Source: an uncultured Alphaproteobacteria bacterium
GTDB lineage: Bacteria; Pseudomonadota; Alphaproteobacteria; RF32; CAG-239
Assembly (NCBI GenBank): GCA_934254925.1
Contig: CAKQMD010000004.1
Coordinates: 18,664-82,663 of the forward strand
Reading direction: 5' to 3'
Length of the DNA: 64,000 nt
Every line of letters begins with the position of its first letter. Position 1 is the stretch's first letter. Shown here one piece after another: positions 7,188 through 47,926 of the stretch. The notes beneath the pieces were generated by a model, which was given only the letters and a program-made list of their open reading frames with translations, searched no databases and was not told where the DNA came from. A program made the translations under genes and the position numbers.

Positions 7188-9269
7188 ATGAGCAACAGTA
7201 TCAGTTTAACCGCCTCGATGCGATCAAATTTGCTGAGCCTGCAGAATATTGCGGGACAGGTTGATCTTACTCAAAATCGGCTTTCGACCGGATTGAAAGT
7301 TAATTCAGCCATTGACAATCCTTCTTCTTATTATACGGCTGTCTCTTTAAACAACAGAGCTAACGACCTGTCGGCCTTGTTGGATTCCATGGCACAGGGA
7401 ATCCAGACGATTAAAGCGGCGACGGAAGGTTTGGAAGCCGGGGCCAAATTGCTGGAACAAGCCTCGGCCACGGCAACGCAGGCGTTAAGCAGTTCCCGTT
7501 CGGCGAGCAAACCGGCGGAATATTACCTTGAACAAGGTTATACAATCATAACTTCCGACATGGACAGCGCGGACATTGAAGCCTTGATGGTTGACGGCGC
7601 CAAACTGGCCTTGAGTGGGAACGTAAGCTTAGATGCCGGTTTGCTGCTGGCGGCTGACAATGTTACTTTTGACGGTAACGGTTACAGTCTAAGTTATAAC
7701 GGTACGGATGATCTTTTGACCGTTGCTGGCAGTAATGCAACCGTCACTAATATCAAATTAAATTATGAAAATGATGCCGGCGGATCGGCCGTTGAGGTAA
7801 CAGGATCGGCGGATATTTCTTTAATTGAGATCACGGGAGAAGGTGATAAGGTTTATGGTATCCATTGCGGCAAAGGTGGACAAATAAATTTAGACAATAC
7901 CTTTGGCATCTCCGTCAGTGGCCAAGGATCGCATAATCTGGTTAACGGCAATGTGGAGATTTATGACGGGAAAAGCAATACCCAAGCCATTGTCGATCAG
8001 ATCGGGACGGATGCCTTGGCGGCGTTGGCAGCTCATCAATTCTATGCCCCGGGCGTTGCCAAGAACGATGCCTATTTTGGCCAAGGAAAATGGTATCTAC
8101 CTTCCATTGGTGAATTAATGGATCTTTACGGCACGGAAAACGATGCTATGGTAGAAGGGGGTGGTACGTCAGGGGCAATTGGAAACAATGAAGAGAAAGT
8201 TAATGCAGCTTTGCAAGCTTTAAAAAACAAGAATGTTGATACTGTAGTTTTAAAAAATGAAAATTATTGGTCCTCTTCTGAGTATAGCAATAACTATTCA
8301 TGGATATTCAGTATGAGTGATGGTTTTCGGAATGGTAGCCTTAAATCCCCCATAAATCATTCCATTCGGAGTTTTTCATTTTTGGAAAATTGTTTTGATC
8401 CGAGAGAAGACAGTCCGAAAATCGGCGATGTGATGTATTCGGATCTGAGTTACGGTTCGGCCGATGATCATAACGGTAGCAAAACCGCCGTGGGGATTGT
8501 GACCTGGGTTTCGGAAGATGGAAGATCGGCTAAAATCATTAATTTAAAAGACCTGCGTTTCAGTTCTTATGATCAAGCAGAAAACTTTAATCCCGATAAG
8601 CCTTATGATACTTCGGACGGGACGGTGGGGTATACACGTTGGACGATACCTGATGTTTCAAATACTGATATTACAGACCTTCCTAACTACAATAATGTAA
8701 AATTGCTGGAAGCGGCACAATCCGGCGGCAACATTACGGTTAGCAATACTAATCTGGATCTTGATAATAATATCTATCTCTCTGTCGACAAGCAGATGGA
8801 TTCTTATAATGAAATCGTTAAGCAGTATGATTCCCTGATCAAGGACAGCTCCTATAAGGGGATCAACCTATTGCGAGAGCAGAATTTGACTGTAACTTTT
8901 AACGAAAACCATTCGGCACGGCTCTCCGTACAGGGAAAAGACGCTTCGGCCAAAGCTTTGGGTTTGGTGACGACAAGCTGGGAAACGCAAAGTGACGTGG
9001 TGAAATCGATTCAAGAACTGACAGACGCGCTTAATCAGATCCGACAGATGTCATCCGAACTCGGCAACTATTATTCCATTGTCACCACGCGGGAGAACTT
9101 TACGCAAAACCTGATCAATGTTCTCACTGAAGGGGCGGATAAGCTCACGCTTGCCGATATGAACGAGGAATCGGCCAACATGTTAGCCCTGCAAACCAGG
9201 CAGCAGTTGGCGATCAATTCTCTTTCCTTGGCCTCCCAGGCCAGCCAGTCGATCCTCAAGCTGTTTTGA
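7188..9269 (+). CDS. Giant flagellin-like protein: flagellin N- and C-terminal domains flanking a ~450-aa inserted domain
   Basis: N-term TQNRLSTGLKVNSAIDNPSSYYTAVSLNNRAN matches alphaproteobacterial flagellin (TQSRISSGLRVGSASDNAAYW...). C-term TLADMNEESANMLALQTRQQLAINSLSLASQASQSILKLF matches Rhizobium FlaA ([40 protein letters not shown]). The centre holds beta-helix-like repeats and the DUF1566-like motif KWYLPSIGELMDL. Confidence 0.8.
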   Translation: MSNSISLTASMRSNLLSLQNIAGQVDLTQNRLSTGLKVNSAIDNPSSYYTAVSLNNRANDLSALLDSMAQGIQTIKAATEGLEAGAKLLEQASATATQALSSSRSASKPAEYYLEQGYTIITSDMDSADIEALMVDGAKLALSGNVSLDAGLLLAADNVTFDGNGYSLSYNGTDDLLTVAGSNATVTNIKLNYENDAGGSAVEVTGSADISLIEITGEGDKVYGIHCGKGGQINLDNTFGISVSGQGSHNLVNGNVEIYDGKSNTQAIVDQIGTDALAALAAHQFYAPGVAKNDAYFGQGKWYLPSIGELMDLYGTENDAMVEGGGTSGAIGNNEEKVNAALQALKNKNVDTVVLKNENYWSSSEYSNNYSWIFSMSDGFRNGSLKSPINHSIRSFSFLENCFDPREDSPKIGDVMYSDLSYGSADDHNGSKTAVGIVTWVSEDGRSAKIINLKDLRFSSYDQAENFNPDKPYDTSDGTVGYTRWTIPDVSNTDITDLPNYNNVKLLEAAQSGGNITVSNTNLDLDNNIYLSVDKQMDSYNEIVKQYDSLIKDSSYKGINLLREQNLTVTFNENHSARLSVQGKDASAKALGLVTTSWETQSDVVKSIQELTDALNQIRQMSSELGNYYSIVTTRENFTQNLINVLTEGADKLTLADMNEESANMLALQTRQQLAINSLSLASQASQSILKLF

Positions 9270-17607: not shown

Positions 17608-17952
17608 TTATTTATTGACGAGGAGTTTGATGAAGTTTAAGACATAAACAATGCTCAAGAAAGCTAATATGCGCGACAATAAGGGCATCAGCGTTACGCT
17701 GCCGCCGTAAAGAAACATTTGCAGGAAAAGTGCCAAAATGACGGCAGCCACAATGTTGTAAAGCCAATATCTTTTGCTGCCCATGAAAATGAAGGCGCAG
17801 ACTGCCGCTCCTATTGCCAAATACATTTCGCTTAGCTTGGATAATGTTCCGTAAGTCAGGGTTTTGACAAAGGCGATGTTAAAGACAAAACCGGCGGCAA
17901 TGATTAAGGATGTGGCGATTAATATGCTGATATAGGCTGATTTTTTACTCAT
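17608..17952 (-). CDS. Hypothetical small membrane protein with 4 predicted TM helices
   Basis: ATG at 17952 preceded by GAGGAGGGA; strongly hydrophobic. Confidence 0.55.
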   Translation of the reverse strand: MSKKSAYISILIATSLIIAAGFVFNIAFVKTLTYGTLSKLSEMYLAIGAAVCAFIFMGSKRYWLYNIVAAVILALFLQMFLYGGSVTLMPLLSRILAFLSIVYVLNFIKLLVNK

Positions 17953-18036
17953 AGTCCCTCCTCTTTTTTTTAGATGTCGCAACTATAGCAAAGTTCTTGG
18001 CGCAAAGGAAGAAAGTTTCGGTTTAATCCACCGAAA

Positions 18037-19620
18037 TTACAGTGAGGCTTTGATTAATTCACGCGTATAGCTTTCATGGGGACTGTTAAAGATCTTTTCG
18101 GCTGAAGTTTGTTCGATGATCTTTCCGTCTTTCATAACAGCGATGTCGTCAGCCAAAGACTTAACCGCTTGCATATTATGCGAGATAAAAAGATAGCTTA
18201 AGCCTCTTTGCTTTTGAATTTGTTGCAAAAGTTCCAAAATTTGGGCTTGTATGGTTACGTCGAGCGCTGAGGTCGGTTCATCCAAAATAAGCAGTTCAGG
18301 TTCCAAAACCAAAGCGCGGGCGATGGCTATTCTCTGTCTTTGGCCGCCGGAGAATTCATGCGGATATTTGTTCAAACAGCTTTCGTCAAGCCCAACTTCT
18401 CGCAGGACGTCAATGACCTTTTGTTTTCGTTCTCGGCGTGAGATCTCGGGGTGATGGATCAGGAGCCCCTCCCCGACGATTTCTTCAATGTTCATCCGCG
18501 GATTCAGAGAGTTGAACGGATCTTGAAAAACTATTTGAATTTGTTTTCTTAAGCTTTTGTTTTTGCTCCTTAAATCTTTTGTTATCTCTTCGCCTTTATA
18601 AATGATGTCGCCGCTGAAAGGGAGTAATCTGGCCAAGGCCATGCCTAAAGTTGTTTTTCCTGATCCTGATTCCCCGACCAAGCCCAAAGTTTTTCCGGCT
18701 TTGATTTGAAGGGAGACGTGATCCAGGGCGTAAAAATATTCTTTTACGCGTCCCCAAAAGTTTTTCTTTTGCGGGTATCTGACCGTCAGCCCTTCTGCCG
18801 AAAGCAAAGTTTTATTCGAATTATTAGTATATAATTTCAATGGATTAGATGACAATATTAATTTTTTAGTATAAGAATTTTGCGGGTGATTGAAAATGTT
18901 GGCCGTCGTGTTGTATTCCATGACTTTGCCGTCTTTCATCACCAGAATGTTGTCGGCAATTTTCTTAATGATTTCAAGGTCATGACTGATAAAGATTATT
19001 GCCATTCCCAGTTTGCGTCGCAGATCCAGCAATAATTCCAATATTTGCGCCTGAATGGTGACGTCCAAAGCCGTGGTGGGTTCGTCGGCAATCAGAATGT
19101 CCGGGTTGTTGGCGATTGCCATGGCGATCATGACACGCTGGCGTTGGCCGCCGGAAAGTTCATAAGGGTATGAAAAATAGCGGCGCCGGGGATTTTTTAT
19201 ACCGGTCAGTCGGAGCAGTTCCATAACGCGGCCGCGAATGCGTTTGGCGGAGAGGTTGCTATGCCGATGCAGCGTTTCGGCAATTTGGTCGCCGATTTTA
19301 TGCAATGGATTCAGCGATGACAGAGGCTCCTGGAACACGAAACCGACCCGGTTGCCGCGATAGCTGCAGATTTCAGGATTGTGAAGCAGTTCCGCGCCGT
19401 TGAAACGGATAGACGAATTGGCGGCGTGGAAGGCTTTGGGATAAGGCAGCAATCCCAATACGGATAAGGCGGTGACGGATTTGCCCGATCCGGATTCGCC
19501 GACAATGCCGAGAATTTCTCCCTTGTCTAGTTTAAAGGAAACGTCCTCAGCGGCGATGGTTTTCTCGCCGTTTTGGCGAAAATAAACAGAAAGGTGATTG
19601 ACTTCCAGGATCGGGCTCAT
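18037..19620 (-). CDS. yejF: ABC transporter ATP-binding protein with duplicated ATPase domains (microcin C / oligopeptide type)
   Basis: Two Walker A motifs (GESGSGKS), two ABC signatures (LSGGQRQR), 527 aa. Confidence 0.85.
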
Positions 19621-20669
19621 TGGTTTTTCCTCGCATCAAAGGCATCACGGATTCCCTCTCCGATAAAAATAAGCAAAGTCAACAGCGTAGAAAGAACAAT
19701 GAAGATAGAGATACCGATCCAAGGAGCCTGAAGATTGTCTTTTCCCTGCCGGACCAGATCGCCGAGAGAGGGATAGTCCTGAGAAAGTCCCAAGCCCAAG
19801 AAATCCAGCGCGGTCAGCGCTACAATGGATTCTGACAGAATAAAAGGAATAAAGGTCAAAGCCGCGACGACGGCATTGGGCAGAATATGCCGATAGATGA
19901 TGCGAAAGTTGCCGACGCCCAGCGCTTTAGCAGCTTTTACAAATTCAAAATTGCGGGTACGCAAAAATTCGGCTCTGACAACAGGAATGAGGCTTGTCCA
20001 GGAAAAAAACAGCAAAATGAGGAGCAATCCCCAGAATGTCGGCACAAAAATGCTGGCGACGATAATCAAAACAAAAAGCTGCGGCAGAGATTCCCATATT
20101 TCCAGAAAGCGTTGAAAGAAAATGTCCAGGCGGCCTCCGAAGTACCCCTGAACGGCCCCAGCGACGATTCCGACGACCGATGAAAAAAGCGTCAGCAGAA
20201 AGGCAAAGACGACCGACAGACGTAATCCGTACAGCAAACGGGCAACGATGTCCCTGCCCTCATCATCGGTTCCCAACCAATGGCGGCGGTCCGGCGCAGC
20301 CGGTGTCGGCGTTTGAATACTGTAGTCTACCGTATTGAAAGAAAAAGGAATAAGCGTAAACAGCATCCAGCCTTTTTGATTGATTTTGTGTTGCAGGTAA
20401 GGATCATGATAATCTGCAGGCGTCGGAAAATCTCCGCCGAAAGTTTGGTCGGTATAAGTTTTGAAAACCGGAAAATAAAACTGTTGATCATATTTTACAA
20501 TCAGAGGCTGATCATTGGCAATGAGTTCGGAAAAAAGGCTGATCCCGAACAAAAACGAAAAGATGATCAGGGAATACCAGGCGCGGCGGTTTTGGCGGAA
20601 AGTCTGAAGACGCCGCAAAGCCAACGGGCTGAGACGACTTTTGAGCCATGTCGCGATCGGGTGTAACAC
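19617..20669 (-). CDS. yejE: ABC transporter permease
   Basis: Colinear with E. coli YejE: WLGTDDEGRDIVARLLYG...VRAEFLRTRNFEFVKAAKALGV...NLQAPW. Confidence 0.85.
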   Translation of the reverse strand: MLHPIATWLKSRLSPLALRRLQTFRQNRRAWYSLIIFSFLFGISLFSELIANDQPLIVKYDQQFYFPVFKTYTDQTFGGDFPTPADYHDPYLQHKINQKGWMLFTLIPFSFNTVDYSIQTPTPAAPDRRHWLGTDDEGRDIVARLLYGLRLSVVFAFLLTLFSSVVGIVAGAVQGYFGGRLDIFFQRFLEIWESLPQLFVLIIVASIFVPTFWGLLLILLFFSWTSLIPVVRAEFLRTRNFEFVKAAKALGVGNFRIIYRHILPNAVVAALTFIPFILSESIVALTALDFLGLGLSQDYPSLGDLVRQGKDNLQAPWIGISIFIVLSTLLTLLIFIGEGIRDAFDARKNQ

Positions 20670-20672
20670 GGG

Positions 20673-23000
20673 TTATTGTTCCTCATTATCAATGGTTTGA
20701 ATGATCTCGACATTGACTTCCGGTTGAGCGGGCTCCGCTTTGGTTTCTTCGGCGGCGGGAACTTGGGCGGTTTCTTCCTCAGGTTTTGTCTGTTCCGCTT
20801 GGGAGGCTCCCTCCTCTGTCGTTTGAGGCTCTTCCGGATTCTTCGTTTCTTGCGTTTTTGTCTGTTCTTCTGCGACGGTTTCCGCCGTATCGGGGACATC
20901 AGCGGCAGAGTCTGCTTTTTCCTGTTCCTCGGCTTTGGCGGTTTCTTCGGCAACAAGGCTCAATGATTTGGTTTCGGCTTCCGGCTCCTGAATGATGTCC
21001 GGTGTTTCAAGCGCCGGGGCGTTCAGTTGTTTTTCCGTGCCGATTTCGTTAATTTGTTCTTCCGTTACGACCTGAGGTTCCTCGCTTTGCGTCGGCAAAT
21101 TATGGTTAAAGCCGCCGTACCAGCTTTGGAAGGCCGCTTTGGCCAAGCTTATATCGGTTTCGGTAATCGGCGCTTTTTTGATTTTTTCAGTCAATTCTTT
21201 TTTGGGTGCCTCGTGCAGTTTGAGTTCTGCAAATTCGACACAAGGGGTCTTTTTATAGAGGTAACCTTTAAGGATGTTGGCTGCGGAGCATACGCGATCA
21301 TTGACGGTGAACTCTTTTTTGAGCGGGTCACGGATGGCCATATTGACGAAGTTTTCGTTTTTAAATGAAGGGATAAACTCTTTCTCTTTGATTTCATAAA
21401 GGCCGTTTAAACCGCTGATGCCTTGCATGACGATGACGGTATTTTGGTCTTTTCCGTGTTTTTTCAGACGGTTGATAAAGTCTTGCATACGGCCGAACAA
21501 GCATTTCAGCTGGTCGGCATAGGCCTCACGTTTGGCAAAGACGTCGTTGGTCTTGACCCATGGGAGATGTCGTTTTTCCCGCCATTGGGAAATAGGTTTA
21601 AGGTTACAGTATTCATCATAGACATAAAGATCGGAGGGAATGTCGATATAAGCGAAATAGGCTGTGTTTCCTTTGTCTTTGATGAGGTCTTCTTCCAGGT
21701 AGTCGAGGGTTTTGACAGCATCTACCGTGTAAAAGCTGCGGGTGGAATAGCCAATTCCGGGAATGGTGTCGGCATCGGTTATCAGGCGCAGACCGGTGTA
21801 GAGCCAGGAGAAGTCAGAAATCAGGCCGGTGCTTTCTACCCATTGGGCCAACAAAAGGCCGATTTTTTGTCCCAGGCTTAGGTTAAGATTTTCCAGCTTG
21901 ATCGGCAAATTTTGCTTTTTTATGCATTTGCTGACGGAGGGCTGATTATTGGTATAGCAGATTTCTATACCGCGGGATTCATAGGCCTTAATGTCATAAT
22001 TGGCTTTGAGGAAAGTGTCGTAGATCTTATTGTTTTTGAGGTAAAGATATTGGTTGGACAGGTCTTTGAAATTCCAGTAACTGTTCAAAACAACGCTGGA
22101 AAGCGTGTTTTCGGCGGTGTCTTCCGATCGGGTTTGCGGGTTAAACGTTCTGGTGAGGTTCAAATAAGGATCCGTTGTGTTGACGTAAGCGTTTGGATAA
22201 AAGTTGAAGTTGTTTTCAGCGTAGAAACCAAGCATGGTATCCATGGCGCTTTTGATTTTGTCGTTGTATGCCTTGCGTGCGGGTTTGTTGTCTTGCAGGT
22301 CACGGAGGTAGTTGTAGGAAGTGAAGTCAGGGAAAGCCAAAAAGACGAACTTTTTGCCGTCATAGTAACTGTCGGCAATTTTGCGGCTGTAAGTCGTGCG
22401 GAAACCGGTGTTGCGGTGAGCGTTTAAATAAGTGTCAAACCCAATGCCGGCCGTGATAATCAGCAAAATGCCGATGAAGTAGGCAATGGTGATGCGGCTG
22501 GACAGCGACAGAAAGAAAAAGAAGAACACCGAGGCTGCTACCGTGAAGATGATGTGGGAGTTTTCATTGAACATGACACCGATGTTGTCGCCGAAATAGG
22601 AGGCTATCCAGCCGGAAAACATCGATTCTTTGTCAAACAGTGCAAACTGCGAGAACATTGCCAAGATAAACAAGGCCAATATCAATGCACTCAACAAATT
22701 TTGCAGAAAAGAGGAAAATGAGACCAGATACATCAGCAGAATCGAAAACACACCCAACCCGGCGATGATGTAAATGACTTCGGGCCGCAGGATAATTTCG
22801 GATGAAAAAATGTTATAGCTGCCGGCATTGGCAAACAAGATGAAATTCATGATCAAAAGCGTGGCAACGATAATACTCTTTTCGACCCAGTCGACCATAT
22901 AGATGGGAAAGGAACGTTTTTTCTTTATGGTGGTTTTGTCCCGGTTGTTCTCGTTTTTGAGCGCTTTTTGGCGGTTGTCGTCCAGTATTATGTCATGCAT
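20673..23000 (-). CDS. Large polytopic membrane protein, 775 aa: about five N-terminal TM helices, a large extracytoplasmic domain, and an acidic low-complexity C-terminal tail
   Basis: The first ~200 aa are hydrophobic; the last ~150 aa are E/T/A/P/Q-rich low complexity. The 3' end is 3 nt from the yejE start. Architecture resembles EptA/LtaS/BcsG-type membrane-anchored phosphatase-superfamily enzymes, but no catalytic motif was confirmed. Confidence 0.5.
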   Translation of the reverse strand: MHDIILDDNRQKALKNENNRDKTTIKKKRSFPIYMVDWVEKSIIVATLLIMNFILFANAGSYNIFSSEIILRPEVIYIIAGLGVFSILLMYLVSFSSFLQNLLSALILALFILAMFSQFALFDKESMFSGWIASYFGDNIGVMFNENSHIIFTVAASVFFFFFLSLSSRITIAYFIGILLIITAGIGFDTYLNAHRNTGFRTTYSRKIADSYYDGKKFVFLAFPDFTSYNYLRDLQDNKPARKAYNDKIKSAMDTMLGFYAENNFNFYPNAYVNTTDPYLNLTRTFNPQTRSEDTAENTLSSVVLNSYWNFKDLSNQYLYLKNNKIYDTFLKANYDIKAYESRGIEICYTNNQPSVSKCIKKQNLPIKLENLNLSLGQKIGLLLAQWVESTGLISDFSWLYTGLRLITDADTIPGIGYSTRSFYTVDAVKTLDYLEEDLIKDKGNTAYFAYIDIPSDLYVYDEYCNLKPISQWREKRHLPWVKTNDVFAKREAYADQLKCLFGRMQDFINRLKKHGKDQNTVIVMQGISGLNGLYEIKEKEFIPSFKNENFVNMAIRDPLKKEFTVNDRVCSAANILKGYLYKKTPCVEFAELKLHEAPKKELTEKIKKAPITETDISLAKAAFQSWYGGFNHNLPTQSEEPQVVTEEQINEIGTEKQLNAPALETPDIIQEPEAETKSLSLVAEETAKAEEQEKADSAADVPDTAETVAEEQTKTQETKNPEEPQTTEEGASQAEQTKPEEETAQVPAAEETKAEPAQPEVNVEIIQTIDNEEQ

Positions 23001-23127
23001 CTCAGATCACCTTGTTTCGGTTCAATAAAGCGGTTGGAGGTATTGTAAGCACATTTTTTGTTATTTTAAAGCAAAAATCCTCAAGGCTGCACAGCTCTTG
23101 AGGATTTTGACAAAAGAAGATTCCCGA

Positions 23128-23745
23128 TTAACGAGAGTAGAATTCGATAACCAGATTGGGTTCCATAATGCAGGCATAAGGAACATCATCAAACTTGGGA
23201 ACGAAAGCGTATTTGGCGGTCAGCTTTTTGCTGTCAACTTCCAAATATCCCGGAACCTGACGATCCTGAGCTTCAACGGCGGCGATAACAATCGGCAACG
23301 CTTTGGATTTTTCGCGGACTTCAATCACGTCTCCGGCTTTGACCATATAAGACGGGATGTTGACCTTTTTGCCGTTAACCGTTACATGACCGTGGTTGAC
23401 GAACTGACGGGCCGCAAAGATGGTGGGAACGAATTTTGATTTATAGACCAGGTTGTCCAGGCGCGATTCCAAAATACCGATGAGATTTTCGGCGGCATCA
23501 CCGCTGCGGCGAATGGCCTCGACGTAGTATTTGTGGAACTGTTTTTCAGAAACGTTGCCGTAATAGGTTTTCAATTTCTGTTTGGCATAGAGCTGTTCAC
23601 CGTAGTCTGTCGGTTTTTTTCTTCTCTGACCGTGCTGGCCGGGAGCGTATTCTCTTTTATTGAACGGGCTGTTGGCATTGCCCCACAGGGTGGCGCCATA
23701 GCGACGGTCGGCTTTTTTCTTTGCAGAAACAATACTTTTTACCAT
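23128..23745 (-). CDS. rpsD: 30S ribosomal protein S4
   Basis: [31 protein letters not shown], 205 aa. Confidence 0.95.
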
Positions 23746-23955: not shown

Positions 23956-25716
23956 ATGTCTTATGACATTTTGTTTCAACGCGCGTTGTCGCTTCATCAG
24001 GCGGGGCAATTTGACGACGCGGAGCAATTATACAGGCAGATTCTGGAGACGGCCCCCGATCAACCGGACGTTTTGAATTTGCTGGGGTTGATCGCCCAGG
24101 CCAAAGACTTGCATCTGCAGGCGGCGGAGTTGTTTTATCGGGCGGTTAGAAATGCACCGGAGCATGCCCCTTTTTATTTCAATTTGGGAATTTCTCTCAA
24201 GGCGTTAAATAAACCGCATGAAGCCATGGAGGCTTTTCAGAAGGTTTTGCAGTTGCAGCCCGACTTGAAAGAAGCCGAAAATGAACGCGGCAGCGTGCTG
24301 ATGATGTTGCATGAACCGGAAAAAGCCCGGGAGGCTTATCGGCGGGCTTTGCAGCAAGATGAAAATTATGCGTCGGCTCATCTTAATTTGGCTTTGAGCT
24401 ATTTGCCCGACAATCCGCAAAAAGTTCGCGACAGCTTGGAAAATTTGTCGCGACGGTTTCCCGACGAGGCTGCCGTTTGGTTTGAATTGGCCCGGCAATA
24501 TTATGAAGTCGGCAGAGACGGCGAAGCTTGGCAAGCGGCCGTCAAAGCCAAGGAATTGGCGCCGGCTTCCGACGAAGCAAAAGCCCTTTTGGGGCTGCTT
24601 TGCCTTAAAGAACATCAAGATGACAAGGCTGCGATTTATTTTGAAAAGGCGCTGCTTCTAAATCCCAAAAATACGCAGGCCATGGTTAATTTGGCCAATA
24701 TCCGCAGCAATGTCGGAAGCTTTGACCAGGCGGAAGCCCTGTATAAAAGGGTTTTGGAGCTTGAGCCCAGAAATTTTGACGCCTGTTTTAACTATGCGCA
24801 CATGCTCTATCGTGCCAAGAGGCTGCCCGAAGCTTTGGAAATTTACAGAAGTGCCGTCATTTTGAATCCAAAATCGGCAGAAGTCAGCAATAACTTGGGC
24901 ATTATCATGAAAGATCAGCAGGATTACGAAGAAGCGCTCGGCTTGTTCTTCAATGCCATGGCTTTGGATCCGGACTTGGAGGCGGCCATGGTGAACGCGG
25001 CGGAAACGCTGGTGCTGTATTTTGAAGGAGGACACGAAAAAGAGGCAGTGCAGATTGCTGAAAACTGGAAAAGGCAAATGCCCGACAATCCTTTTGCCTG
25101 CCATGTCTGCTGCGCATTAAAAGGAGAAAACTGTGAAGATAATCTCGAGTATAGTCAGAGGCTGTTTGACAATTTTGCTGATCATTACGAGCCTGTTATG
25201 CAAAATTTGGATTACAACTTGCCGGGAACTTTGGCAGCAATTATTGGAGATGCTGAAGCTGCCATTGTGGATCTGGGGTGCGGTTCGGGGCTTTTGGGAG
25301 AAGCGCTCAAAGAAAAAGGGAAAGAACTCGTCGGCGTAGACCTGTCGGCCAAGATGCTGGCTCTGGCCGAGAAGAAAAAAACTTATAAAAAACTGGTGCT
25401 AAGCGATGCCGTTTCTTTTATGAAAAGCCGTCCCAAAGCCGATTTGGTGGTTATGGCCGACGTTTTGGGCTATATCGGCGACCTTGGCGAACTCTTTACT
25501 CTGCTGAAGGGATATAAGGTTTTGTTTTCCGTTGAAGCTTTGCAAGACAGCGATCAAAATTTTGTATTGAATGCCGGCGGACGTTATCAACATAGTGAAA
25601 AATATATACGAAATCTCTTGGAAAATAACGGATTTCGTGACATCATAATACAAAAGGCCGTCTTTAGAAAAGAAAAAGGAAAAGATGTTCCGGGCCTTAT
25701 TGTCAGCGGAGAATAG
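23956..25716 (+). CDS. TPR-repeat protein fused to a class I SAM-dependent methyltransferase domain
   Basis: Multiple TPR-like repeats in the first ~380 aa; C-terminal VDLGCGSGLLGE motif I. Confidence 0.7.
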   Translation: MSYDILFQRALSLHQAGQFDDAEQLYRQILETAPDQPDVLNLLGLIAQAKDLHLQAAELFYRAVRNAPEHAPFYFNLGISLKALNKPHEAMEAFQKVLQLQPDLKEAENERGSVLMMLHEPEKAREAYRRALQQDENYASAHLNLALSYLPDNPQKVRDSLENLSRRFPDEAAVWFELARQYYEVGRDGEAWQAAVKAKELAPASDEAKALLGLLCLKEHQDDKAAIYFEKALLLNPKNTQAMVNLANIRSNVGSFDQAEALYKRVLELEPRNFDACFNYAHMLYRAKRLPEALEIYRSAVILNPKSAEVSNNLGIIMKDQQDYEEALGLFFNAMALDPDLEAAMVNAAETLVLYFEGGHEKEAVQIAENWKRQMPDNPFACHVCCALKGENCEDNLEYSQRLFDNFADHYEPVMQNLDYNLPGTLAAIIGDAEAAIVDLGCGSGLLGEALKEKGKELVGVDLSAKMLALAEKKKTYKKLVLSDAVSFMKSRPKADLVVMADVLGYIGDLGELFTLLKGYKVLFSVEALQDSDQNFVLNAGGRYQHSEKYIRNLLENNGFRDIIIQKAVFRKEKGKDVPGLIVSGE

Positions 25717-26424: not shown

Positions 26425-26970
26425 TTAGAAGGTGTATCTTACACCGGCAGTGACTTCGTTAAAGTTGTTGAGATGTGCCATGCCGACATAGTTGTAGCGG
26501 GCCATGACACGGGCGGCAAAGTGATCGGTGAAGTTGTATTGGGCACCGATACCGGCACGGTAGCCGATTTTGCCTTTTGAGGTTTTGCCGTCAATCTTTT
26601 TATGATCTGTTTCATAGTCGGCAATACCCAAAGAAGCCAACAAATCAAATTTTTGAGCAGTGTCTATCGGCATATAGCCATAGACATCAATACCATAGGC
26701 ATGGAATTTGAATTTTTCAATGCCGTCCGGCCGATGGCTTTTTCTTTCTCCGGCTTGCTGATAGAAAGCTTCCAATCCAAGATAATCACCCATTCTGGTA
26801 CCAACGTTGATAATGCCGGAGTTAAAACCGTCATCCATGTTTTTGGCATCTTTTTTGAAATCGGCTTTGTCATAGGCATAATCCAATCCGACGTACGGAC
26901 GGAATTCCTGTGCTTGAACAGCTGCCGAAAACAAGCAGGCAACGCCGGCTAAAAGTAACGTTTTTTTCAT
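26425..26970 (-). CDS. Small outer-membrane beta-barrel protein (OMP_b-brl family), paralog 1
   Basis: Signal peptide MKKTLLLAGVACLFSAAVQA, alternating amphipathic strands, C-terminal ...AGVRYTF with terminal Phe. Confidence 0.75.
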   Translation of the reverse strand: MKKTLLLAGVACLFSAAVQAQEFRPYVGLDYAYDKADFKKDAKNMDDGFNSGIINVGTRMGDYLGLEAFYQQAGERKSHRPDGIEKFKFHAYGIDVYGYMPIDTAQKFDLLASLGIADYETDHKKIDGKTSKGKIGYRAGIGAQYNFTDHFAARVMARYNYVGMAHLNNFNEVTAGVRYTF

Positions 26971-27139: not shown

Positions 27140-27697
27140 TTAGAAGGTGTATCTTACACCGGCAGTGACTTCGTTAAAGTTGTTCAGGTGGGCTGTTCCG
27201 ACATAGTTGTAACGGCCCATGATACGAGCGGCAAAGTTTTCGGTGAAGTTGTATTGAGCACCGATACCGGCACGGTAACCAACGCGTTTTTGAGTCAATT
27301 TCGCATCCGGCCCTTTTAATTTCATGTCATAAACGGCGGCACCCAGAGAAGCCAACAAGTCAAACTTCTTTTCGCAGCCGAGCGGCAGATAGCCGTATGC
27401 ATCCAAACCGTAAGCCTGGAATTTTGCAGACAGGTTGTAGTCTTCAAATTTGGTTTTTCTTTCGTCAGAAAGCTGATAGAAAGCTTCCAAACCAAAGTAG
27501 TCGCCCATTCTGCTACCGACGTTGATGATACCGGAGTTGAAACCGTCTTTCAAATCTTTTGCGTCTTTTTTGAAATCAGCTTTATCATAGGCATAGTCCA
27601 ATCCGATATAGGGACGGACTTCAGACATATAGTCCTGTGCCTGGGCAGAAACTGAAAATAAGCAGGCTACTCCTGCAAGCAATAATGTTTTTTTCAT
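27140..27697 (-). CDS. Small outer-membrane beta-barrel protein, paralog 2
   Basis: Same signal peptide and C-terminus as 26425..26970; about 60% identical, with divergent loop regions. Confidence 0.75.
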   Translation of the reverse strand: MKKTLLLAGVACLFSVSAQAQDYMSEVRPYIGLDYAYDKADFKKDAKDLKDGFNSGIINVGSRMGDYFGLEAFYQLSDERKTKFEDYNLSAKFQAYGLDAYGYLPLGCEKKFDLLASLGAAVYDMKLKGPDAKLTQKRVGYRAGIGAQYNFTENFAARIMGRYNYVGTAHLNNFNEVTAGVRYTF

Positions 27698-30312: not shown

Positions 30313-31293
30313 TTACCTCTTTGTTCCAAAGACCCGAGGATGACAATATTTGTCAATCAGCGGGACAAAAGCGTTCATAATCAAAATCGCAAAAGAAACG
30401 CCTTCAGGATAAGCGCTCCACAAACGAATAACCACGGTCAGGACGCCGCAGCCGACGGCAAAGATCACCTGTCCTTTTTTGCTCATCGGCGAAGTGACGT
30501 AGTCTGTTGCCATAAAAACGGCGCCGAGCATCAGACCGCCGGACAGAAGATGCGTCACCGGCTCATAGCGGAGGTCTCCGGTTTTGAGCCAGAGAATGCC
30601 GGTAATCATAAAGACGGTTGCAATATAATAAAACGGAATATGCCAGGTAATGACGCGGCGGTAGAGCATGTAGAGCAGTCCCAACAACAAAGCCAGCGCC
30701 GAGACCTCTCCTAAAGAACCGCCGGTGTAGCCTACGAACATTTGCCAGTAGTCAGGCAGGTTTCCGCTTAATGCCGTGGCGGAGGTTTGGGCATCCAGAT
30801 GTTTGATAATGCCAAGGGTGGTTGCCGACGTCTGCATGTCGACGTTCCAAAAGTCCAGCCAACGAGGCTGAGGCCAATGCGTCATGGCAACGGGAAAGGA
30901 AATGAACAAAAAGACGCGGCCGACCAATGCCGGATTGAAAATGTTTTTTCCCAAACCGCCAAAACACATTTTGGCAACGCCGATTGCCATGGCGCAGCCG
31001 CAAAGAATCATCCAAACCGGCATGGAACTCGGCAGATTGAATGCCAGCAGCAGCCCGGTAATGATTGCAGAGTTGTCGCCGACGGTTGGCGGGATTTTGA
31101 GCAGATAACGGGTAATCAGGTATTCGCACAAGACGCAGCCGGCGACTGAAGTCAAAATGACCTTGAGCGCACCGACGCCGAAAAAGGCAACGGCGACAAC
31201 GGCAGCGGGCATCAGAGCAATAATAACGTCACGCATCAAGTCCGACGTTTTGACCGGCGAACTCATGTGGGGAGCAGATGAAACTTTAAGCAT
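30313..31293 (-). CDS. rnfD: Rnf complex subunit D
   Basis: N-terminal SSAPHMSSPVKTSDLMRDVIIALMPA, 326 aa, polytopic. Confidence 0.85.
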   Translation of the reverse strand: MLKVSSAPHMSSPVKTSDLMRDVIIALMPAAVVAVAFFGVGALKVILTSVAGCVLCEYLITRYLLKIPPTVGDNSAIITGLLLAFNLPSSMPVWMILCGCAMAIGVAKMCFGGLGKNIFNPALVGRVFLFISFPVAMTHWPQPRWLDFWNVDMQTSATTLGIIKHLDAQTSATALSGNLPDYWQMFVGYTGGSLGEVSALALLLGLLYMLYRRVITWHIPFYYIATVFMITGILWLKTGDLRYEPVTHLLSGGLMLGAVFMATDYVTSPMSKKGQVIFAVGCGVLTVVIRLWSAYPEGVSFAILIMNAFVPLIDKYCHPRVFGTKR

Positions 31294-31296
31294 CGT

Positions 31297-32625
31297 TTAG
31301 TTCTTCCTCGTCTTTTTTAGTTCCATTTTCGAGAGTTTGCAATAATCCAGCAGCGGAATCCTTCCGGGGCAAGTGTAAGCACAGGAACCGCATTCTATAC
31401 AATCCAAGACATGAAGGCCTTTGACCTCTTCAAACATGTTTTCCCGAGCATAGCGGGCAATGGCAAAAGGTTCCAGTCCAACGGGGCAGACTTCGACGCA
31501 TTTGCCGCAGCGAATGCAGCTTTGCTCGTTTTCCTTATGAGATATGTAATCGGAAAGCAGCAAAATTCCCGAGGTCAGCTTGGTGATCGGTGCCTTGAGG
31601 TTGACAGCGGAAGTTCCCATCATCGGGCCGCCGAAGACGACCTGAGCGACGTCGGGCGACAGCCCTCCGGCCTTTTCAATCAGATAAGAGGCCGGTGTCC
31701 CTACCCGCACCCTGAAGTTTCCGGGATTGGTGCACAAATCTCCGCTGACGGTTACAATGCGCTCGTAGAGCGGCTTGTTTTTCATGACCATTTCGTAAAC
31801 GGCGTGAACGGTGCCGACGTTTTGGACAATGCAGCCGACGTCTATCGGCAAGCGGCCTGAGGGTACTTCGCGGCCGGTTATGGTCTTAATCAGTTGTTTT
31901 TCGGCGCCTTGAGGATATTTGGTCTTACAGACCGCGACATTGACGCCGACATAGCGTTTGGTGACTTTAGTCATTGTTTGAATAGCTTCGGGCTTGTTTT
32001 CGTCGATGGCGACCACGGCGTTTTGGATCCCCAAAGCCTTGTTAATGATTTTGGCACCGATGACGATTTGTTCCGCTTTTTCGATCATCAGTCGGTCATC
32101 TGCCGTCAGCCAAGGTTCACATTCTATTCCGTTGAGGATGAGATATTCGGCTTTTTTGCCCTCCGGCAGCGTGGTTTTGATCGGGGTCGGATAACCGGCG
32201 CCGCCCATTCCGACAATACCGCCTTCGCGAATTTTTGCGACAATTTCCATCGCTGTGTAGGGAATCTCGTTGATAATGTCGGGACTTCGGTCAATCGAGG
32301 GTTCGTATTCGTCGCCTTCGACACGAATCGTGATCATGTTTTCTTCGTATCCGAACTCTCCTTCTATCGGTTCCACTTTCAGTACTTCTCCGGAAACCGA
32401 AGAATGAACGTCAGAGGAGACGACGCCGTCCGAATCTGCCAGCAAGGTGCCGACCTTGACTTTGTCGCCTTTGGCAACTAAAATTTTGGCCGGGGTGCCG
32501 ATGTGTTGCTTAACCGGGATGTAGACGGTTTCCGGTAAACCGGCATCAACAATGGGACTGTTTGAGGTTATTTTATGTTTTTCCGGGTGAATACCGCCTA
32601 GCGGGAAGGTCTTGTTGCTGGTCAT
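31297..32625 (-). CDS. rnfC: Rnf complex subunit C (NADH-binding, 2x[4Fe-4S])
   Basis: CIRCGKCVEVCP and CIECGSCAYTCP ferredoxin motifs; GAGGAGYPT. Confidence 0.9.
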   Translation of the reverse strand: MTSNKTFPLGGIHPEKHKITSNSPIVDAGLPETVYIPVKQHIGTPAKILVAKGDKVKVGTLLADSDGVVSSDVHSSVSGEVLKVEPIEGEFGYEENMITIRVEGDEYEPSIDRSPDIINEIPYTAMEIVAKIREGGIVGMGGAGYPTPIKTTLPEGKKAEYLILNGIECEPWLTADDRLMIEKAEQIVIGAKIINKALGIQNAVVAIDENKPEAIQTMTKVTKRYVGVNVAVCKTKYPQGAEKQLIKTITGREVPSGRLPIDVGCIVQNVGTVHAVYEMVMKNKPLYERIVTVSGDLCTNPGNFRVRVGTPASYLIEKAGGLSPDVAQVVFGGPMMGTSAVNLKAPITKLTSGILLLSDYISHKENEQSCIRCGKCVEVCPVGLEPFAIARYARENMFEEVKGLHVLDCIECGSCAYTCPGRIPLLDYCKLSKMELKKTRKN

Positions 32626-33461: not shown

Positions 33462-33880
33462 CAGTTATCGTCAGCCTTTATCGTAAAATGAATTTTTGCA
33501 GCAAAATATTTGCGACTCAAGAATAAAATAAAATAATAAGGAATCAAGACAATTATGCTCAAAATCCCCGCCTTAATTTCACTCATGCCGGCATAAACGC
33601 CGCCAAAGAGGACGCCCAGCAACAGCAGCAAGGGAATAAGATAGGCAAAAACGACGGCGCGAAAGCCGTTTTCTTCGCTCATGACGACGTTGATTTTTTG
33701 GTCCAGGCTGTAAGGTTCGGCGTTATAGACCGGGATTTCGACTTGTTTTTCCCGGCATTGGGCGTTATTGCAGATATTTTTGGCGCTGCAGCCGGCGCAG
33801 GCTTCGGCATTTTCAATTTCAACCGTGATTTTTGCCGGTTCTATCTTGACAATCCGGGCTTCGTGTTCAATTTCAGTCAT
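33461..33880 (-). CDS. RseC/MucC-family protein (SoxR-reducing system component)
   Basis: 139 aa, N-terminal Cys cluster (CAGCSAKNICNNAQC) then two TM helices; sits in an rnf operon as RseC does in other bacteria. Confidence 0.55.
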   Translation of the reverse strand: MTEIEHEARIVKIEPAKITVEIENAEACAGCSAKNICNNAQCREKQVEIPVYNAEPYSLDQKINVVMSEENGFRAVVFAYLIPLLLLLGVLFGGVYAGMSEIKAGILSIIVLIPYYFILFLSRKYFAAKIHFTIKADDN

Positions 33881-34902
33881 TGTTGTTCTCCCATATAAGA
33901 TGCTGCGGCCGAGGAATAAACGCTTTTAATGCTGTCGTCGGCCTCTCTGACAAACAAAATTACCGGCAGATTAAGCTTTTCGGCCAAGGCCAGTCCCCTG
34001 TCTTCTCCCAGAGCCATGATGGCTGTGGCATAAGCGTCCGCCGTCATACAATCGGGAGCCAGGACCGTTGCCGAAGCCAGGTTATGTTCAATCGGACGGC
34101 CGTCAAACGGCGAAATGGTATGTGCGTAGCGTTTGCCGTTCCAGTTGAAGAAATTATGATAGTCTCCCGAGGTGGCAACAGCCATGTCTTTTAACTGCAA
34201 AGCCAAAATATTACCTGAGACGTCTGCCGAGGGAAAAGCGACGCCGACCGTCCAGCTTTTTCCCGGGGACTTTTCTCCCGCGGCCTTTATTTCTCCGCCG
34301 ATTTCGACAATATAATTGCGGATACCGTCGTTTTCCAGTAAGGACGCGATCTTATCAACGGCGTATCCTTTGGCTATTGCCGAAAGATTCAGTGACGTTT
34401 GCTGATTTTTTTTGACGACGCTGCGAAAATCCGGAGCAAAATGCAGCTGATGAAAGCCGACGGTCGACAAGACGGCGTCAATTTGTTTCGGGTCAGGAAT
34501 TTTTTCCACTTTTCCGCGCGGGCCGAATCCCCATAAATTGACCAGGGGGGCGACGGTGGGGTCAAAATATCCGTCACTTTGGCGGTTGATTTCGGCAGAC
34601 GTTTTTAACAAAAGCGCTAAGTCCGGCGACAGGTTGAACTTTTCGCCGATGGCAGCCCGGTTCAGGCGGTTGATCTCCGATTCCGGGGTGAAAACTGACA
34701 AATGCCGGTTAACATCGTCAAAAACTTGTTCTATACGCTTTTCCAAATCCGGCGATGGCGCCTGCCCCGCTATTTTGACATGATAATAGGTCCCAAAAAC
34801 TTTTCCAGACAGCAGATGGGGGGCGGCTATGCGGCGGGAGTCCAGAACAAAAGCCAATGCAAGAAGCAGTGCTGCCGTTGAAATATATTTAAAAAGTCGC
34901 AT
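33877..34902 (-). CDS. apbE: FAD:protein FMN transferase (ApbE)
   Basis: TSGDYHNFFNWNGKRYAHTISPFDGRP matches the ApbE signature; N-terminal signal peptide. Confidence 0.85.
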   Translation of the reverse strand: MRLFKYISTAALLLALAFVLDSRRIAAPHLLSGKVFGTYYHVKIAGQAPSPDLEKRIEQVFDDVNRHLSVFTPESEINRLNRAAIGEKFNLSPDLALLLKTSAEINRQSDGYFDPTVAPLVNLWGFGPRGKVEKIPDPKQIDAVLSTVGFHQLHFAPDFRSVVKKNQQTSLNLSAIAKGYAVDKIASLLENDGIRNYIVEIGGEIKAAGEKSPGKSWTVGVAFPSADVSGNILALQLKDMAVATSGDYHNFFNWNGKRYAHTISPFDGRPIEHNLASATVLAPDCMTADAYATAIMALGEDRGLALAEKLNLPVILFVREADDSIKSVYSSAAASYMGEQQ

Positions 34903-35709: not shown

Positions 35710-37314
35710 TTGATGAAGCTCTTACGCCTCTTATTGCCGCTTATATGCCTGATGTCGATGACGCCGTCTTCGGCACAGGCTTTGTTTTTGTCCGACGAGG
35801 GCGACAAGGTCAGCGTAGAACTATTGACCTGTTATGACGAGATCAACCCGCGGCAGAAGCTGGAGGTTTTGATCAAGTTTCGTCTGCATGACGGCTGGCA
35901 TATCTATGCGCAAAATCCCGGAGATCTCGGTCTGCCGACGGAAGTCGAATGGCAGCTGCCCGCCGGAGCACAGGCTGCGGAAGCGCAATGGAGCCCGGAA
36001 GAAGAATTTGTCAACGAAGGAATTGTGCAGTACGGCTACGGAGACGTCGCCTATTATAAGACGCAGATTACTTTTCCGGAAACCGTTCAAGGACTTCAAA
36101 AATTTAAGGTCAAGATTTCCTGGCTAGGTTGCAGGGATGAGTGCATTCCCGGAAAAACGGAGTTTTATTTTGAGTTGCCGGTGTCTGAGCAGATGCAAAA
36201 GCACAATGCGACGTGGAATCGGGAATTTAAATTGGCCAAGCTTCGTTTTGACGCCGACGGCGGTAAAAGTTTTCTCCTTATTTTGTTGGCGGCTTTTGCC
36301 GGAGGGGTTATTTTGAACTTTATGCCTTGTATTTTTCCGATTTTGACGATCAAGGCCATTTCCATGGTGCAGGGGCGTTACAATCGGCGCAACAAGAGAA
36401 TCGAGGCATTGTTGTATTTGGCAGGCGTGGTGCTTTCTTTTATTGTCGTGGCTACGGTTTTAGTGTTGCTGAGGGCTTCCGGTGAACAAATCGGCTGGGG
36501 GTTCCAACTGCAGTCTCCGGCTTTCGTGGCGGTGATGATCGCCATCTTTGCCGTTATTTTTCTGATGTTGCTTGACTTGATTAAAGTGACTAATCCTTTT
36601 GCCAACAGACTCGGACGGATGTCTTTGCAAAAAGCCAGGTTGAACGCGTTTGTCACCGGTTTTTTCGCCGTATTGATAGCCAGTCCCTGCACGGCACCGT
36701 TTATGGGAATCGCTATCGGTTATACGCTTACTCAGCCTTTGTATGTCTATTATCCGGTTTTTCTTGCGCTCAGTCTTGGTTATGCCCTGCCCTTTACAAT
36801 GATCGGGTTTTATCCCAAAGTTGTTTATCGCATGCTGCCTCGTCCGGGAAAATGGATGGAGGTTTTGAAAAAGATCTTTGCCGTGCCGATCTTTTTTACT
36901 TGCGTTTGGCTGATTTGGGTCCTATATAACCAGACGGACAGCCGCTCCCGCGTGATTGACACGATGGCTTGGGAAAATTATAACGCCTATCGTATCGAAA
37001 ATCTCAAGGAGCAAGGGGAAGCCGTGTTTATCGACTTTACGGCCAAGTGGTGCATCACCTGCCTGATGAACGAAAAAGTGGCGTTGAGTTCTCATCAGTT
37101 CGGCAATTTGGTCAAAGAATACAAAATCCACCTGTTTAAGGCAGATTGGACGAACGAAGACAGCGCCATCTCCGAGGCTTTGGAAGAATATGGCCGGAAT
37201 TCCATTCCTCTGTATGTTTTTTGTCCCGGAAAAATGCAGGCATGTCAAATTTTGCCGCAAATTTTGACGCCGGGAATTTTGGAAGATTATATTAAAGGAA
37301 AAACAAATGATTAA
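35710..37314 (+). CDS. dsbD: Thiol:disulfide interchange protein DsbD
   Basis: N-terminal DsbD-alpha domain, central TM domain with FMPCIFPIL, C-terminal thioredoxin fold with WCITC. Confidence 0.85.
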   Translation: MMKLLRLLLPLICLMSMTPSSAQALFLSDEGDKVSVELLTCYDEINPRQKLEVLIKFRLHDGWHIYAQNPGDLGLPTEVEWQLPAGAQAAEAQWSPEEEFVNEGIVQYGYGDVAYYKTQITFPETVQGLQKFKVKISWLGCRDECIPGKTEFYFELPVSEQMQKHNATWNREFKLAKLRFDADGGKSFLLILLAAFAGGVILNFMPCIFPILTIKAISMVQGRYNRRNKRIEALLYLAGVVLSFIVVATVLVLLRASGEQIGWGFQLQSPAFVAVMIAIFAVIFLMLLDLIKVTNPFANRLGRMSLQKARLNAFVTGFFAVLIASPCTAPFMGIAIGYTLTQPLYVYYPVFLALSLGYALPFTMIGFYPKVVYRMLPRPGKWMEVLKKIFAVPIFFTCVWLIWVLYNQTDSRSRVIDTMAWENYNAYRIENLKEQGEAVFIDFTAKWCITCLMNEKVALSSHQFGNLVKEYKIHLFKADWTNEDSAISEALEEYGRNSIPLYVFCPGKMQACQILPQILTPGILEDYIKGKTND

Positions 37315-47861: not shown

Positions 47862-47926
47862 GGCTTTATCCTTTATTGTGAGAACCTGCCCTTTATATAA
47901 ACCTTTCCGCTGCGGCTTCAAGCCTT

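Follow-up and report, generated by a model that had tools for sequence, protein, structure and literature searches.

YejABEF, an importer of microcin C, antimicrobial peptides and muropeptides, belongs to the PepT/Opp family of ATP-binding cassette (ABC) transporters, in which yejE typically comes directly after a yejB gene. PbgA/YejM/LapC, a sensor of central importance to the envelope whose role is still under debate, is known mainly from work on Enterobacteria. YejM is homologous to LtaS and EptA, whose metal ligands it does not conserve; it binds lipopolysaccharide through an interfacial domain, acts as an anti-adaptor of LapB in the LapB-FtsH control of LpxC, and has also been reported to be a Mg-dependent phosphatase (PMC12444477). 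Here we analysed a 64,000-nucleotide stretch of DNA from an uncultured alphaproteobacterium (contig CAKQMD010000004.1; hereafter the window), in which a gene for a 775-amino-acid (aa) membrane protein is followed immediately by yejE and yejF. The 775-aa protein adopts a predicted fold of the PbgA type and is, judging from its family alignment, probably non-catalytic. At a rough probability of 0.5, we propose that the three gene products are made jointly and cooperate: anchored in the membrane, the PbgA-like protein would act from the periplasm as receptor or regulator for a YejE/YejF transporter working without YejA and YejB.

The three open reading frames (ORFs) lie head to tail on the minus strand (Table 1). 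As the preliminary description of this DNA had noted, only 3 nucleotides (nt) separate the 775-aa gene from yejE; the stop codon of the former and the GTG start of the latter are in the same frame, and a GAGGA sequence lies ahead of yejE inside the 3' end of the large gene. The yejE and yejF genes overlap by 4 nt. The naming of the permease gene in that description was also borne out, and the ATPase gene is of the YejF type by its best match. Against NCBIfam PRK15021 ('microcin C ABC transporter permease'; cutoff 439) window YejE scored 450.3 bits, and it shares 55% identity with its E. coli counterpart. The best NCBIfam match of window YejF was the YejF equivalog, at 634.6 bits and thus below its cutoff of 834; along its whole length the protein shares 47% identity with E. 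coli YejF and, besides two ABC_tran domains, it has a weak, sub-threshold match to the Pfam model oligo_HPY.

We then compared the locus with 43 related genome loci from gut metagenome-assembled genome (MAG) collections, carrying labels that include 'uncultured Alphaproteobacteria', 'Azospirillum sp. 51_20' and 'Proteobacteria bacterium CAG:495', from organisms that we take to belong to the GTDB order RF32. The order large gene, yejE, yejF was found in all 39 loci that were complete enough to score. From the large gene to yejE the gap had a median of -1 nt and ranged from -26 to +35, and yejE and yejF overlapped by 1-4 nt in nearly all cases. The trio was kept where the flanking genes differ, as in P0100 (with rpoA rather than rpsD upstream), P0079 (932 aa), P0305, P0198 and P0292; in loci L052, L055 and L060 it is the downstream genes that differ. 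Near-complete MAGs in which the trio occurs include GCA_963654485.1, the assembly of Proteobacteria bacterium CAG:495 (scaffold HF995323.1), MGYG-HGUT-04400 (CABUUO01) and UMGS63 (UQAB01). Among the 120 matches listed, relatives of window YejE were 71-100% identical to it, and three further YejE clusters that we examined (72-77% identity) were all in the trio. Within the clade, which corresponds to about the first 110 representatives of the profile search described below, identity is approximately 70% for YejE and 60% for YejF, and the linkage of the trio spans about 100 representative clusters at 50% identity. The 775-aa protein had initially been described as fused to a yejEF-only module; the linkage is real at the level of the operon, but there is no protein fusion. 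Two of the loci carry unexpected taxonomic labels: L017, with the full trio, comes from a MAG labelled Lactobacillaceae and L036, which ends before yejE, from one labelled Bacteroidaceae. Both are probably mis-binned contigs.

Signals around the three genes suggest that the trio forms an operon of its own. An intrinsic terminator separates rpsD from the large gene (-20.6 kcal/mol, z = -4.75; an equally good fold arose in 0 of 200 shuffles), a promoter-like site lies between this terminator and the large gene, and a terminator-like hairpin directly follows yejF. The region therefore looks like a self-contained operon consisting of a promoter, the 775-aa gene, yejE, yejF and a terminator. Downstream of yejF lies an ORF of 124 aa (17608-17982, minus strand) that has no Pfam or NCBIfam match and has relatives in 25 of the 43 loci; we do not count it as part of the operon because its position varies in related loci, where it occurs on either strand.

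Copies identical to the 775-aa protein (P0001) are encoded by 7 public contigs, and 17 more homologue clusters, at 30-44% identity, came from a word-indexed search. In an exhaustive profile search the family numbered 155 representatives at E<=1e-30, rising to 584 at E<=1e-10. Together, the identical copies, the homologue clusters and the 155 representatives indicate a real gene under selection rather than a chance ORF. Where the sources name family members at all, they are called 'hypothetical protein' or 'membrane protein' from uncultured Alphaproteobacteria. The 775-aa protein matched no Pfam or NCBIfam model at E<=0.01, and a comparison of the family profile with all PDB sequences returned low-complexity tail noise only.

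The architecture was resolved by structure prediction. A full-length AlphaFold2 model built with an 18-sequence alignment reached a confidence (pLDDT) of about 90 over residues 30-635 and a pTM of 0.73, confirming the earlier impression of about five N-terminal transmembrane helices and a large extracytoplasmic domain. Two short helices on the periplasmic face lie between the third and fourth transmembrane helices. We place the large domain in the periplasm because the N-terminus is rich in Lys and Arg and the number of transmembrane helices is odd. Six invariant cysteines agree with this placement, and a DsbD homologue is encoded in the same window; the cysteines probably form three disulfides, which would stabilise the periplasmic domain. 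In addition, most yejEF-linked members begin with the motif M-(H/E/D/Q)-D-(I/V)-(I/V)-(I/L)-D (aa 1-8; 22977-23000, minus strand), which neither the distant, unlinked members nor, despite its linkage, the P0100 group shows.

When the full model was compared with the PDB using Foldseek, the top 50 listed matches were all proteins of the alkaline-phosphatase superfamily. The best were carbohydrate sulfatases and arylsulfatases (best E = 2.8e-7), and LtaS and MCR-1 were also among the matches. The model aligned with full-length PbgA/YejM (6xlp, E 6.5e-7, 643 columns; and 6v8q) over 615-644 columns, including the transmembrane part. A separate model of the periplasmic domain (pTM 0.88) gave 184 PDB matches at E<=1e-3 with TM-scores of 0.40-0.47, headed by sulfatases, LtaS, EptC and phosphonate monoester hydrolases. 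At the sequence level the signal is fainter. The distant long members P0124, P0127 and P0138 match the Pfam Sulfatase model with 20-24 bits, below the cutoff of 25, which ties the family to the superfamily in sequence as well. A comparison of the family profile with E. coli LapC by hhalign gave E = 3e-4 with a probability of 16-38% and was strongest over the helix and strand preceding the Asp-His site, where the late strand reads 'NTVIVMQGISG' in the 775-aa protein and 'NTVVIITAGRG' in LapC. A phmmer search with E. coli LapC matched the window ORF at E = 0.32, and hhalign against E. coli EptA was not significant (probability 0.4%).

The predicted fold bears directly on the possibility that the 775-aa protein replaced the missing components by descent, as a highly diverged fusion of YejB (the transmembrane part) and YejA (the periplasmic part) comparable to importers with permease-fused binding domains. 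The gene does sit directly upstream of yejE, where yejB normally sits, and the protein does combine an N-terminal transmembrane domain with a C-terminal periplasmic one. However, it gave no BPD_transp_1 or SBP_bac_5 signal, its five compact transmembrane helices with very short cytoplasmic loops leave no room for an EAA coupling helix, and its periplasmic fold is that of the alkaline-phosphatase superfamily and not of a binding protein; homologues without yejEF also occur in the same rpsD context. We consider this origin very improbable, the predicted fold having effectively refuted it.

Conservation across 119 representatives of the family was examined next. Positions conserved in at least 90% of them are F53, F259, F265, N287, Y340, C348, C359, L383, W387, S390, P455, Y461, C465, W473, Y494, Q497, C500, G527, A555, C571 and C587, whereas no Asp, Glu, His, Thr, Lys or Arg reached 90%. 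S390 is the only serine above 90% (92%) and is located away from the mapped catalytic positions. None of the three catalytic elements of the superfamily, the acid that ends strand beta1, the nucleophile or the Asp-His pair, is conserved at its corresponding site in the family (Table 1). Because these sites were mapped by secondary-structure register and a local hhalign match, and not by residue-level superposition, we infer their positions rather than observe them. The preliminary description had likened the layout to EptA-, LtaS- and BcsG-type transferases and had been unable to confirm a catalytic motif. The likeness holds for the fold and the five-helix anchor, with sulfatases, LtaS, EptC, MCR-1 and PbgA among the structural matches, and the conserved acid, nucleophile and Asp-His elements were likewise not found here in the family; a non-catalytic protein of the PbgA type fits better than an active transferase.

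The opposite view is that the periplasmic domain is an active enzyme, an EptA-, LtaS- or OpgB-like transferase or a phosphatase or sulfatase with a non-canonical site, which modifies an envelope molecule while YejEF supplies or removes the substrate. The fold and anchor shared with LtaS, EptA and MCR-1, the weak Sulfatase matches of distant members and the phosphatase activity reported for YejM itself (PMC12444477) would all be in keeping with this. However, the residues conserved in at least 90% of the family include no Asp, Glu, His, Thr, Lys or Arg and no Ser but the off-site S390, the acid, nucleophile and Asp-His positions read P/N, a mixture of D, N and S, and G-L, and the window protein matches no Pfam or NCBIfam model. 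We therefore regard an active enzyme as improbable.

We also searched for the missing transporter components. In the E. coli yejABEF operon (NC_000913), from which our YejA and YejB queries were taken, yejE is immediately preceded by yejB. When all window ORFs of at least 80 aa were searched by phmmer (--max) with window YejE and YejF and E. coli YejA and YejB, neither a further permease or ATPase nor a binding protein was detected. Pfam scans of the long window ORFs found no SBP_bac_5 domain; the domains they did find include Lon, a flagellin-like domain, DsbD, autotransporters and Rnf subunits. By tblastn of the 43 related loci, taken with 10 kb of flank in either direction, the sole match to E. 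coli YejB was yejE itself, a paralogue cross-match that occurred in 17 of them; E. coli YejA gave no match either there or among the window ORFs. The absence of yejA and yejB that had been noted for this locus is thus confirmed as a local one, covering the operon, the 64-kb window and up to 10 kb around the 43 related loci.

Several points weigh against the reading proposed at the outset. More distant members of the family have no adjacent yejEF: P0115 and P0136 follow rpsD, P0124 and P0129 are divergent from a directly adjoining gene for a TPR-methyltransferase (which is also near P0136, with rpsD in between), and P0133 and P0143 have other contexts, all of them without yejEF. It follows from these distant members that the family protein can serve a purpose independent of YejEF. 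Window YejE, 55% identical to its E. coli homologue and 48-50% identical to canonical alphaproteobacterial YejE (rhizobial and Paracoccus), is no further from the former than from the latter, which fits constraint by a normal YejB encoded elsewhere. Furthermore, the active-site mapping depends on secondary-structure register and a local hhalign match, the acidity of the C-terminal tail is not conserved, and a shared operon is no proof of physical partnership.

In the main rival explanation, the genes are neighbours and not partners. The 775-aa protein would then be an independent PbgA-like factor in envelope homeostasis whose deeper partners are rpsD and the TPR-methyltransferase gene, YejE and YejF would belong to a regular YejABEF-type importer of peptides or muropeptides whose YejB and one or more binding proteins are encoded elsewhere in the genome, and the operon would merely co-express envelope genes. 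The retention of the TPR-methyltransferase/rpsD neighbourhood by distant homologues without yejEF speaks for this, as does the high conservation of YejE and YejF, which suggests unchanged constraints. Genes for binding proteins of this transporter can lie away from those for the permeases, as is reportedly so for the YejBEF-YepA system of Agrobacterium. However, the tight and usually overlapping junction between the large gene and yejE has been kept across about 100 clusters and through rearrangements of the flanks. Splitting the permease pair would be unusual, given that yejB directly precedes yejE in E. coli, and no yejB was found within 10 kb in the 43 loci or in the 64-kb window. On balance we judge an association by neighbourhood to be possible but somewhat doubtful.

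The gene neighbourhood also suggests how the arrangement arose. The rpsD gene is upstream in 40 of 43 loci and is found there in outgroups without yejEF too. Since distant homologues occupy the rpsD/TPR-methyltransferase neighbourhood without yejEF, yejEF appears to have been appended behind a gene that was already there. Most simply, an old alphaproteobacterial PbgA-like gene near rpsD and the TPR-methyltransferase gene would have acquired yejE-yejF in the ancestor of a large gut clade. The large protein would accordingly be neither descended from yejA or yejB nor inserted into a yej operon, and the earlier suggestion that it stands in place of these genes is not upheld as far as its evolution goes. 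The TPR-methyltransferase gene (encoding about 590 aa) is divergent from rpsD and the large gene in 31 of the 43 loci, with others at L045 5335-7146, L046 274-2091 and L051 4979-6781, and its product may be a deeper functional partner of the PbgA-like family. We additionally observed that window YejE is nearer to gammaproteobacterial YejE (Vibrio and Enterobacteria, 55-57%) than to the Sinorhizobium, Rhizobium and Paracoccus proteins (48-50%; plasmid/chromid collection), so that, from this similarity, the yejEF pair might be of horizontal origin.

A comparison of conserved positions provided a further hint. Of the 8 transmembrane-domain positions that the yejEF-linked group conserves, five, namely G60, F65, Q118, F119 and S148, differ in the unlinked group; among 46 conserved periplasmic positions, 10 do so (Fisher p = 0.03). 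The contrast hints weakly at a clade-specific partner in the membrane, although divergence of the lineage alone could yield the same pattern.

In the partnership that we propose, the 775-aa protein would have a cytoplasmic N-terminus, five transmembrane helices, a periplasmic domain that has lost its metal-binding and nucleophile residues, and a long disordered periplasmic tail, and it would bind rather than catalyse. By analogy with PbgA, what it binds on the periplasmic side of the inner membrane would most likely be a lipid or glycolipid, or else some other component of the envelope. A genuine YejE and a double-ATPase YejF would have been recruited immediately downstream, translationally coupled to the 775-aa gene, and YejE would presumably act as a homodimer. 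A more specific version of this proposal, which we think rather unlikely, is a PepT/Opp-family transporter that dispenses with both the soluble binding protein and the second permease, in which a YejE homodimer and YejF operate with a catalytically dead PbgA-like protein that either captures the substrate or is driven mechanically by the ATPase. Envelope lipids, muropeptides and host peptides would be candidates for capture by the PbgA-like protein at the outer face of the inner membrane. In both modes the protein would represent an ABC accessory subunit of a new class, and the PbgA body plan would have been put to a new use.

Should the proposed partnership be real, a B/C permease pair and a soluble binding protein could no longer be taken as a rule for PepT-family importers, and the operon would offer a tractable handle on the ligands of non-catalytic membrane proteins with an alkaline-phosphatase fold. 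If it is not, the analysis still provides an annotation gain and a candidate envelope-homeostasis factor in poorly known gut bacteria. In either case an unannotated alphaproteobacterial family with the PbgA body plan is now defined, with at least 155 representative clusters at E<=1e-30.

Table 1. Coordinates of the features at the large gene-yejE-yejF locus (nucleotide positions in the window unless given as aa)
Feature	Position	Strand	Basis and remarks
775-aa protein gene	20673..23000	-	775 codons
Cytoplasmic N-terminus, aa 1-30, K/R-rich stretch and start motif	22911..23000	-	Alignments; low pLDDT
Five-helix transmembrane domain, aa 31-192	22425..22910	-	AlphaFold2 helices 31-59, 73-92, 97-119, 148-166, 169-192; pLDDT ~90
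Periplasmic alkaline-phosphatase/sulfatase-fold domain, aa 195-636	21093..22418	-	Model, Foldseek, conservation; six invariant Cys
Disordered low-complexity tail, aa 637-775, and stop codon	20673..21092	-	pLDDT <50; composition
Beta1-end acid (mapped by register)	aa 224/225		Pro, then Asn in family
Nucleophile, N-terminus of helix after beta2 (mapped by register)	aa 277		Asp/Asn/Ser mix in family
Asp-His pair after late strand (mapped by register)	aa 527-528		Gly, then Leu/Ile/Val in family
yejE, YejE-type (OppC/DppC-like) ABC importer permease	19617..20669	-	Pfam BPD_transp_1; NCBIfam PRK15021; GTG start; 350 codons
yejF, ATPase with two fused ABC domains	18037..19620	-	Two ABC_tran stretches; 527 codons
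Terminator-like hairpin right after yejF stop codon	18016..18036	-	Consensus scan; pattern match only
Promoter-like site upstream of 775-aa gene	23042..23070	-	TTTAAA, 17-nt spacer, TACAAT; consensus scan 9/12; pattern match only
rpsD intrinsic terminator, hairpin then U-run	23071..23111	-	Read directly and RNA fold; separates rpsD from operon
rpsD (ribosomal protein S4), conserved upstream neighbour of 775-aa gene	23128..23745	-	Pfam/NCBIfam scans
TPR and class-I S-adenosylmethionine (SAM) methyltransferase gene, divergently transcribed	23956..25716	+	Pfam scan

The C-terminal tail of the window protein comprises 139 aa, 34 of them Glu, is rich in E, A, T, Q and P, and has a net charge of -31, in line with the acidic low-complexity tail described initially. 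Across 42 orthologues, however, the tail ranges from 47 to 290 aa and its net charge from +11 to -44, so that disorder is conserved and acidity is not. We had considered the acidic tail as a sponge for cationic peptides, and on account of this range of charge the idea was dropped as a general feature. One semi-conserved motif, ..EPEAETKSL.. (aa ~665-684; ~20949-21008, minus strand), stands out from a tail that is otherwise unalignable; Glu674 is present in 39 of 42 orthologues, and the motif may serve as a short linear motif for interaction. In distant relatives of 1,100-1,500 aa the tails are TolA-like, very long and rich in A, E, K and P, and Pfam searches of these long proteins found zero domains in the extensions, which are TolA-like low-complexity sequence. 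Two of them, P0124 (L045 7244-10819; 1,191 aa) and P0129 (L046 2183-6646; 1,487 aa), have A/E/K repeat tails and share the C-terminal motif ET(F/Y)IFIER..NP.RFKK. Each is followed by a glutaredoxin gene, and in L045 the gene for AnmK (anhydro-MurNAc kinase) lies three genes further on.

Elsewhere in the window, two tandem paralogous ORFs of 181 and 185 aa (26425-26970 and 27140-27697, both minus strand) match the same stretch in related loci. Their apparent counterparts in L055, matched by neighbourhood and not by direct comparison, are annotated as OMP_b-brl outer-membrane beta-barrels beside a NUDIX gene, as in the window. Two autotransporter genes with a C-terminal beta-domain (38309-40729, plus strand; 57464-59818, minus strand) and a gene for a 693-aa protein with a flagellin N-terminal domain only (7188-9269, plus strand) were also found. 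Genes for Rnf proteins (RnfC-like and RnfD-like), ApbE and the DsbD homologue (30313-32625, minus strand; 33877-34902, minus strand; 35710-37314, plus strand) and for an Fe-alcohol dehydrogenase (46701-47921) would fit an anaerobic gut organism with a periplasmic disulfide system.

Finally, we compared the locus with described systems. As in YejABEF, yejE precedes yejF with an overlap of 4 nt and the ATPase has two fused ABC domains; the locus differs in that the gene upstream of yejE encodes a PbgA-like protein and that YejA and YejB are locally not found. In transporters of the OpuA and GlnPQ type a binding domain is fused to the permease, whereas here the transmembrane part of the 775-aa protein is PbgA-like and its periplasmic part has an alkaline-phosphatase-superfamily fold. 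An ABC motor co-encoded with a membrane-anchored periplasmic partner, and without a classical soluble binding protein, is known from LptB2FG-LptC and FtsEX-EnvC. The analogy is one of organisation, since the permeases of those systems have LptF/G and FtsX/MacB folds whereas the window permease is of the type-I importer kind (BPD_transp_1). To our knowledge no ABC system has a partner from the alkaline-phosphatase superfamily, although no literature search was aimed at such a pairing. General literature searches, none of them aimed at this combination, did not find an operon of the large gene with YejE and YejF, and a search on RF32 gut Alphaproteobacteria returned nothing relevant.

We regard the family, so far unannotated, as a novel variation on the membrane-anchored proteins of the alkaline-phosphatase superfamily represented by PbgA, LtaS and EptA. 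Like LtaS, EptA, MCR-1 and EptC, the 775-aa protein combines a five-helix membrane anchor with an extracytoplasmic sulfatase fold (Foldseek matches 2w5r, 4uoo, 9nww and 4tn0); unlike these transferases, its family does not conserve the Thr nucleophile, the beta1 acid or the Asp-His pair, as mapped by register, and the window protein has no match to Pfam Sulfatase (PF00884). It resembles PbgA/YejM/LapC in its five-helix N-terminal domain, in its periplasmic domain of the alkaline-phosphatase/sulfatase fold and in the loss of the LtaS/EptA metal ligands, described for YejM (PMC12444477) and assessed here by register mapping in the 119 representatives. It is nevertheless no detectable member of that sequence family (no Pfam or NCBIfam match; hhalign probability at most 38%), and it differs in its six invariant periplasmic cysteines and in a disordered tail of 47-290 aa, longer still in distant relatives, for which E. 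coli LapC (586 aa) is too short. In contrast to PbgA/YejM/LapC, the family of the 775-aa protein is alphaproteobacterial and, in the gut clade, is encoded in an operon with yejEF.

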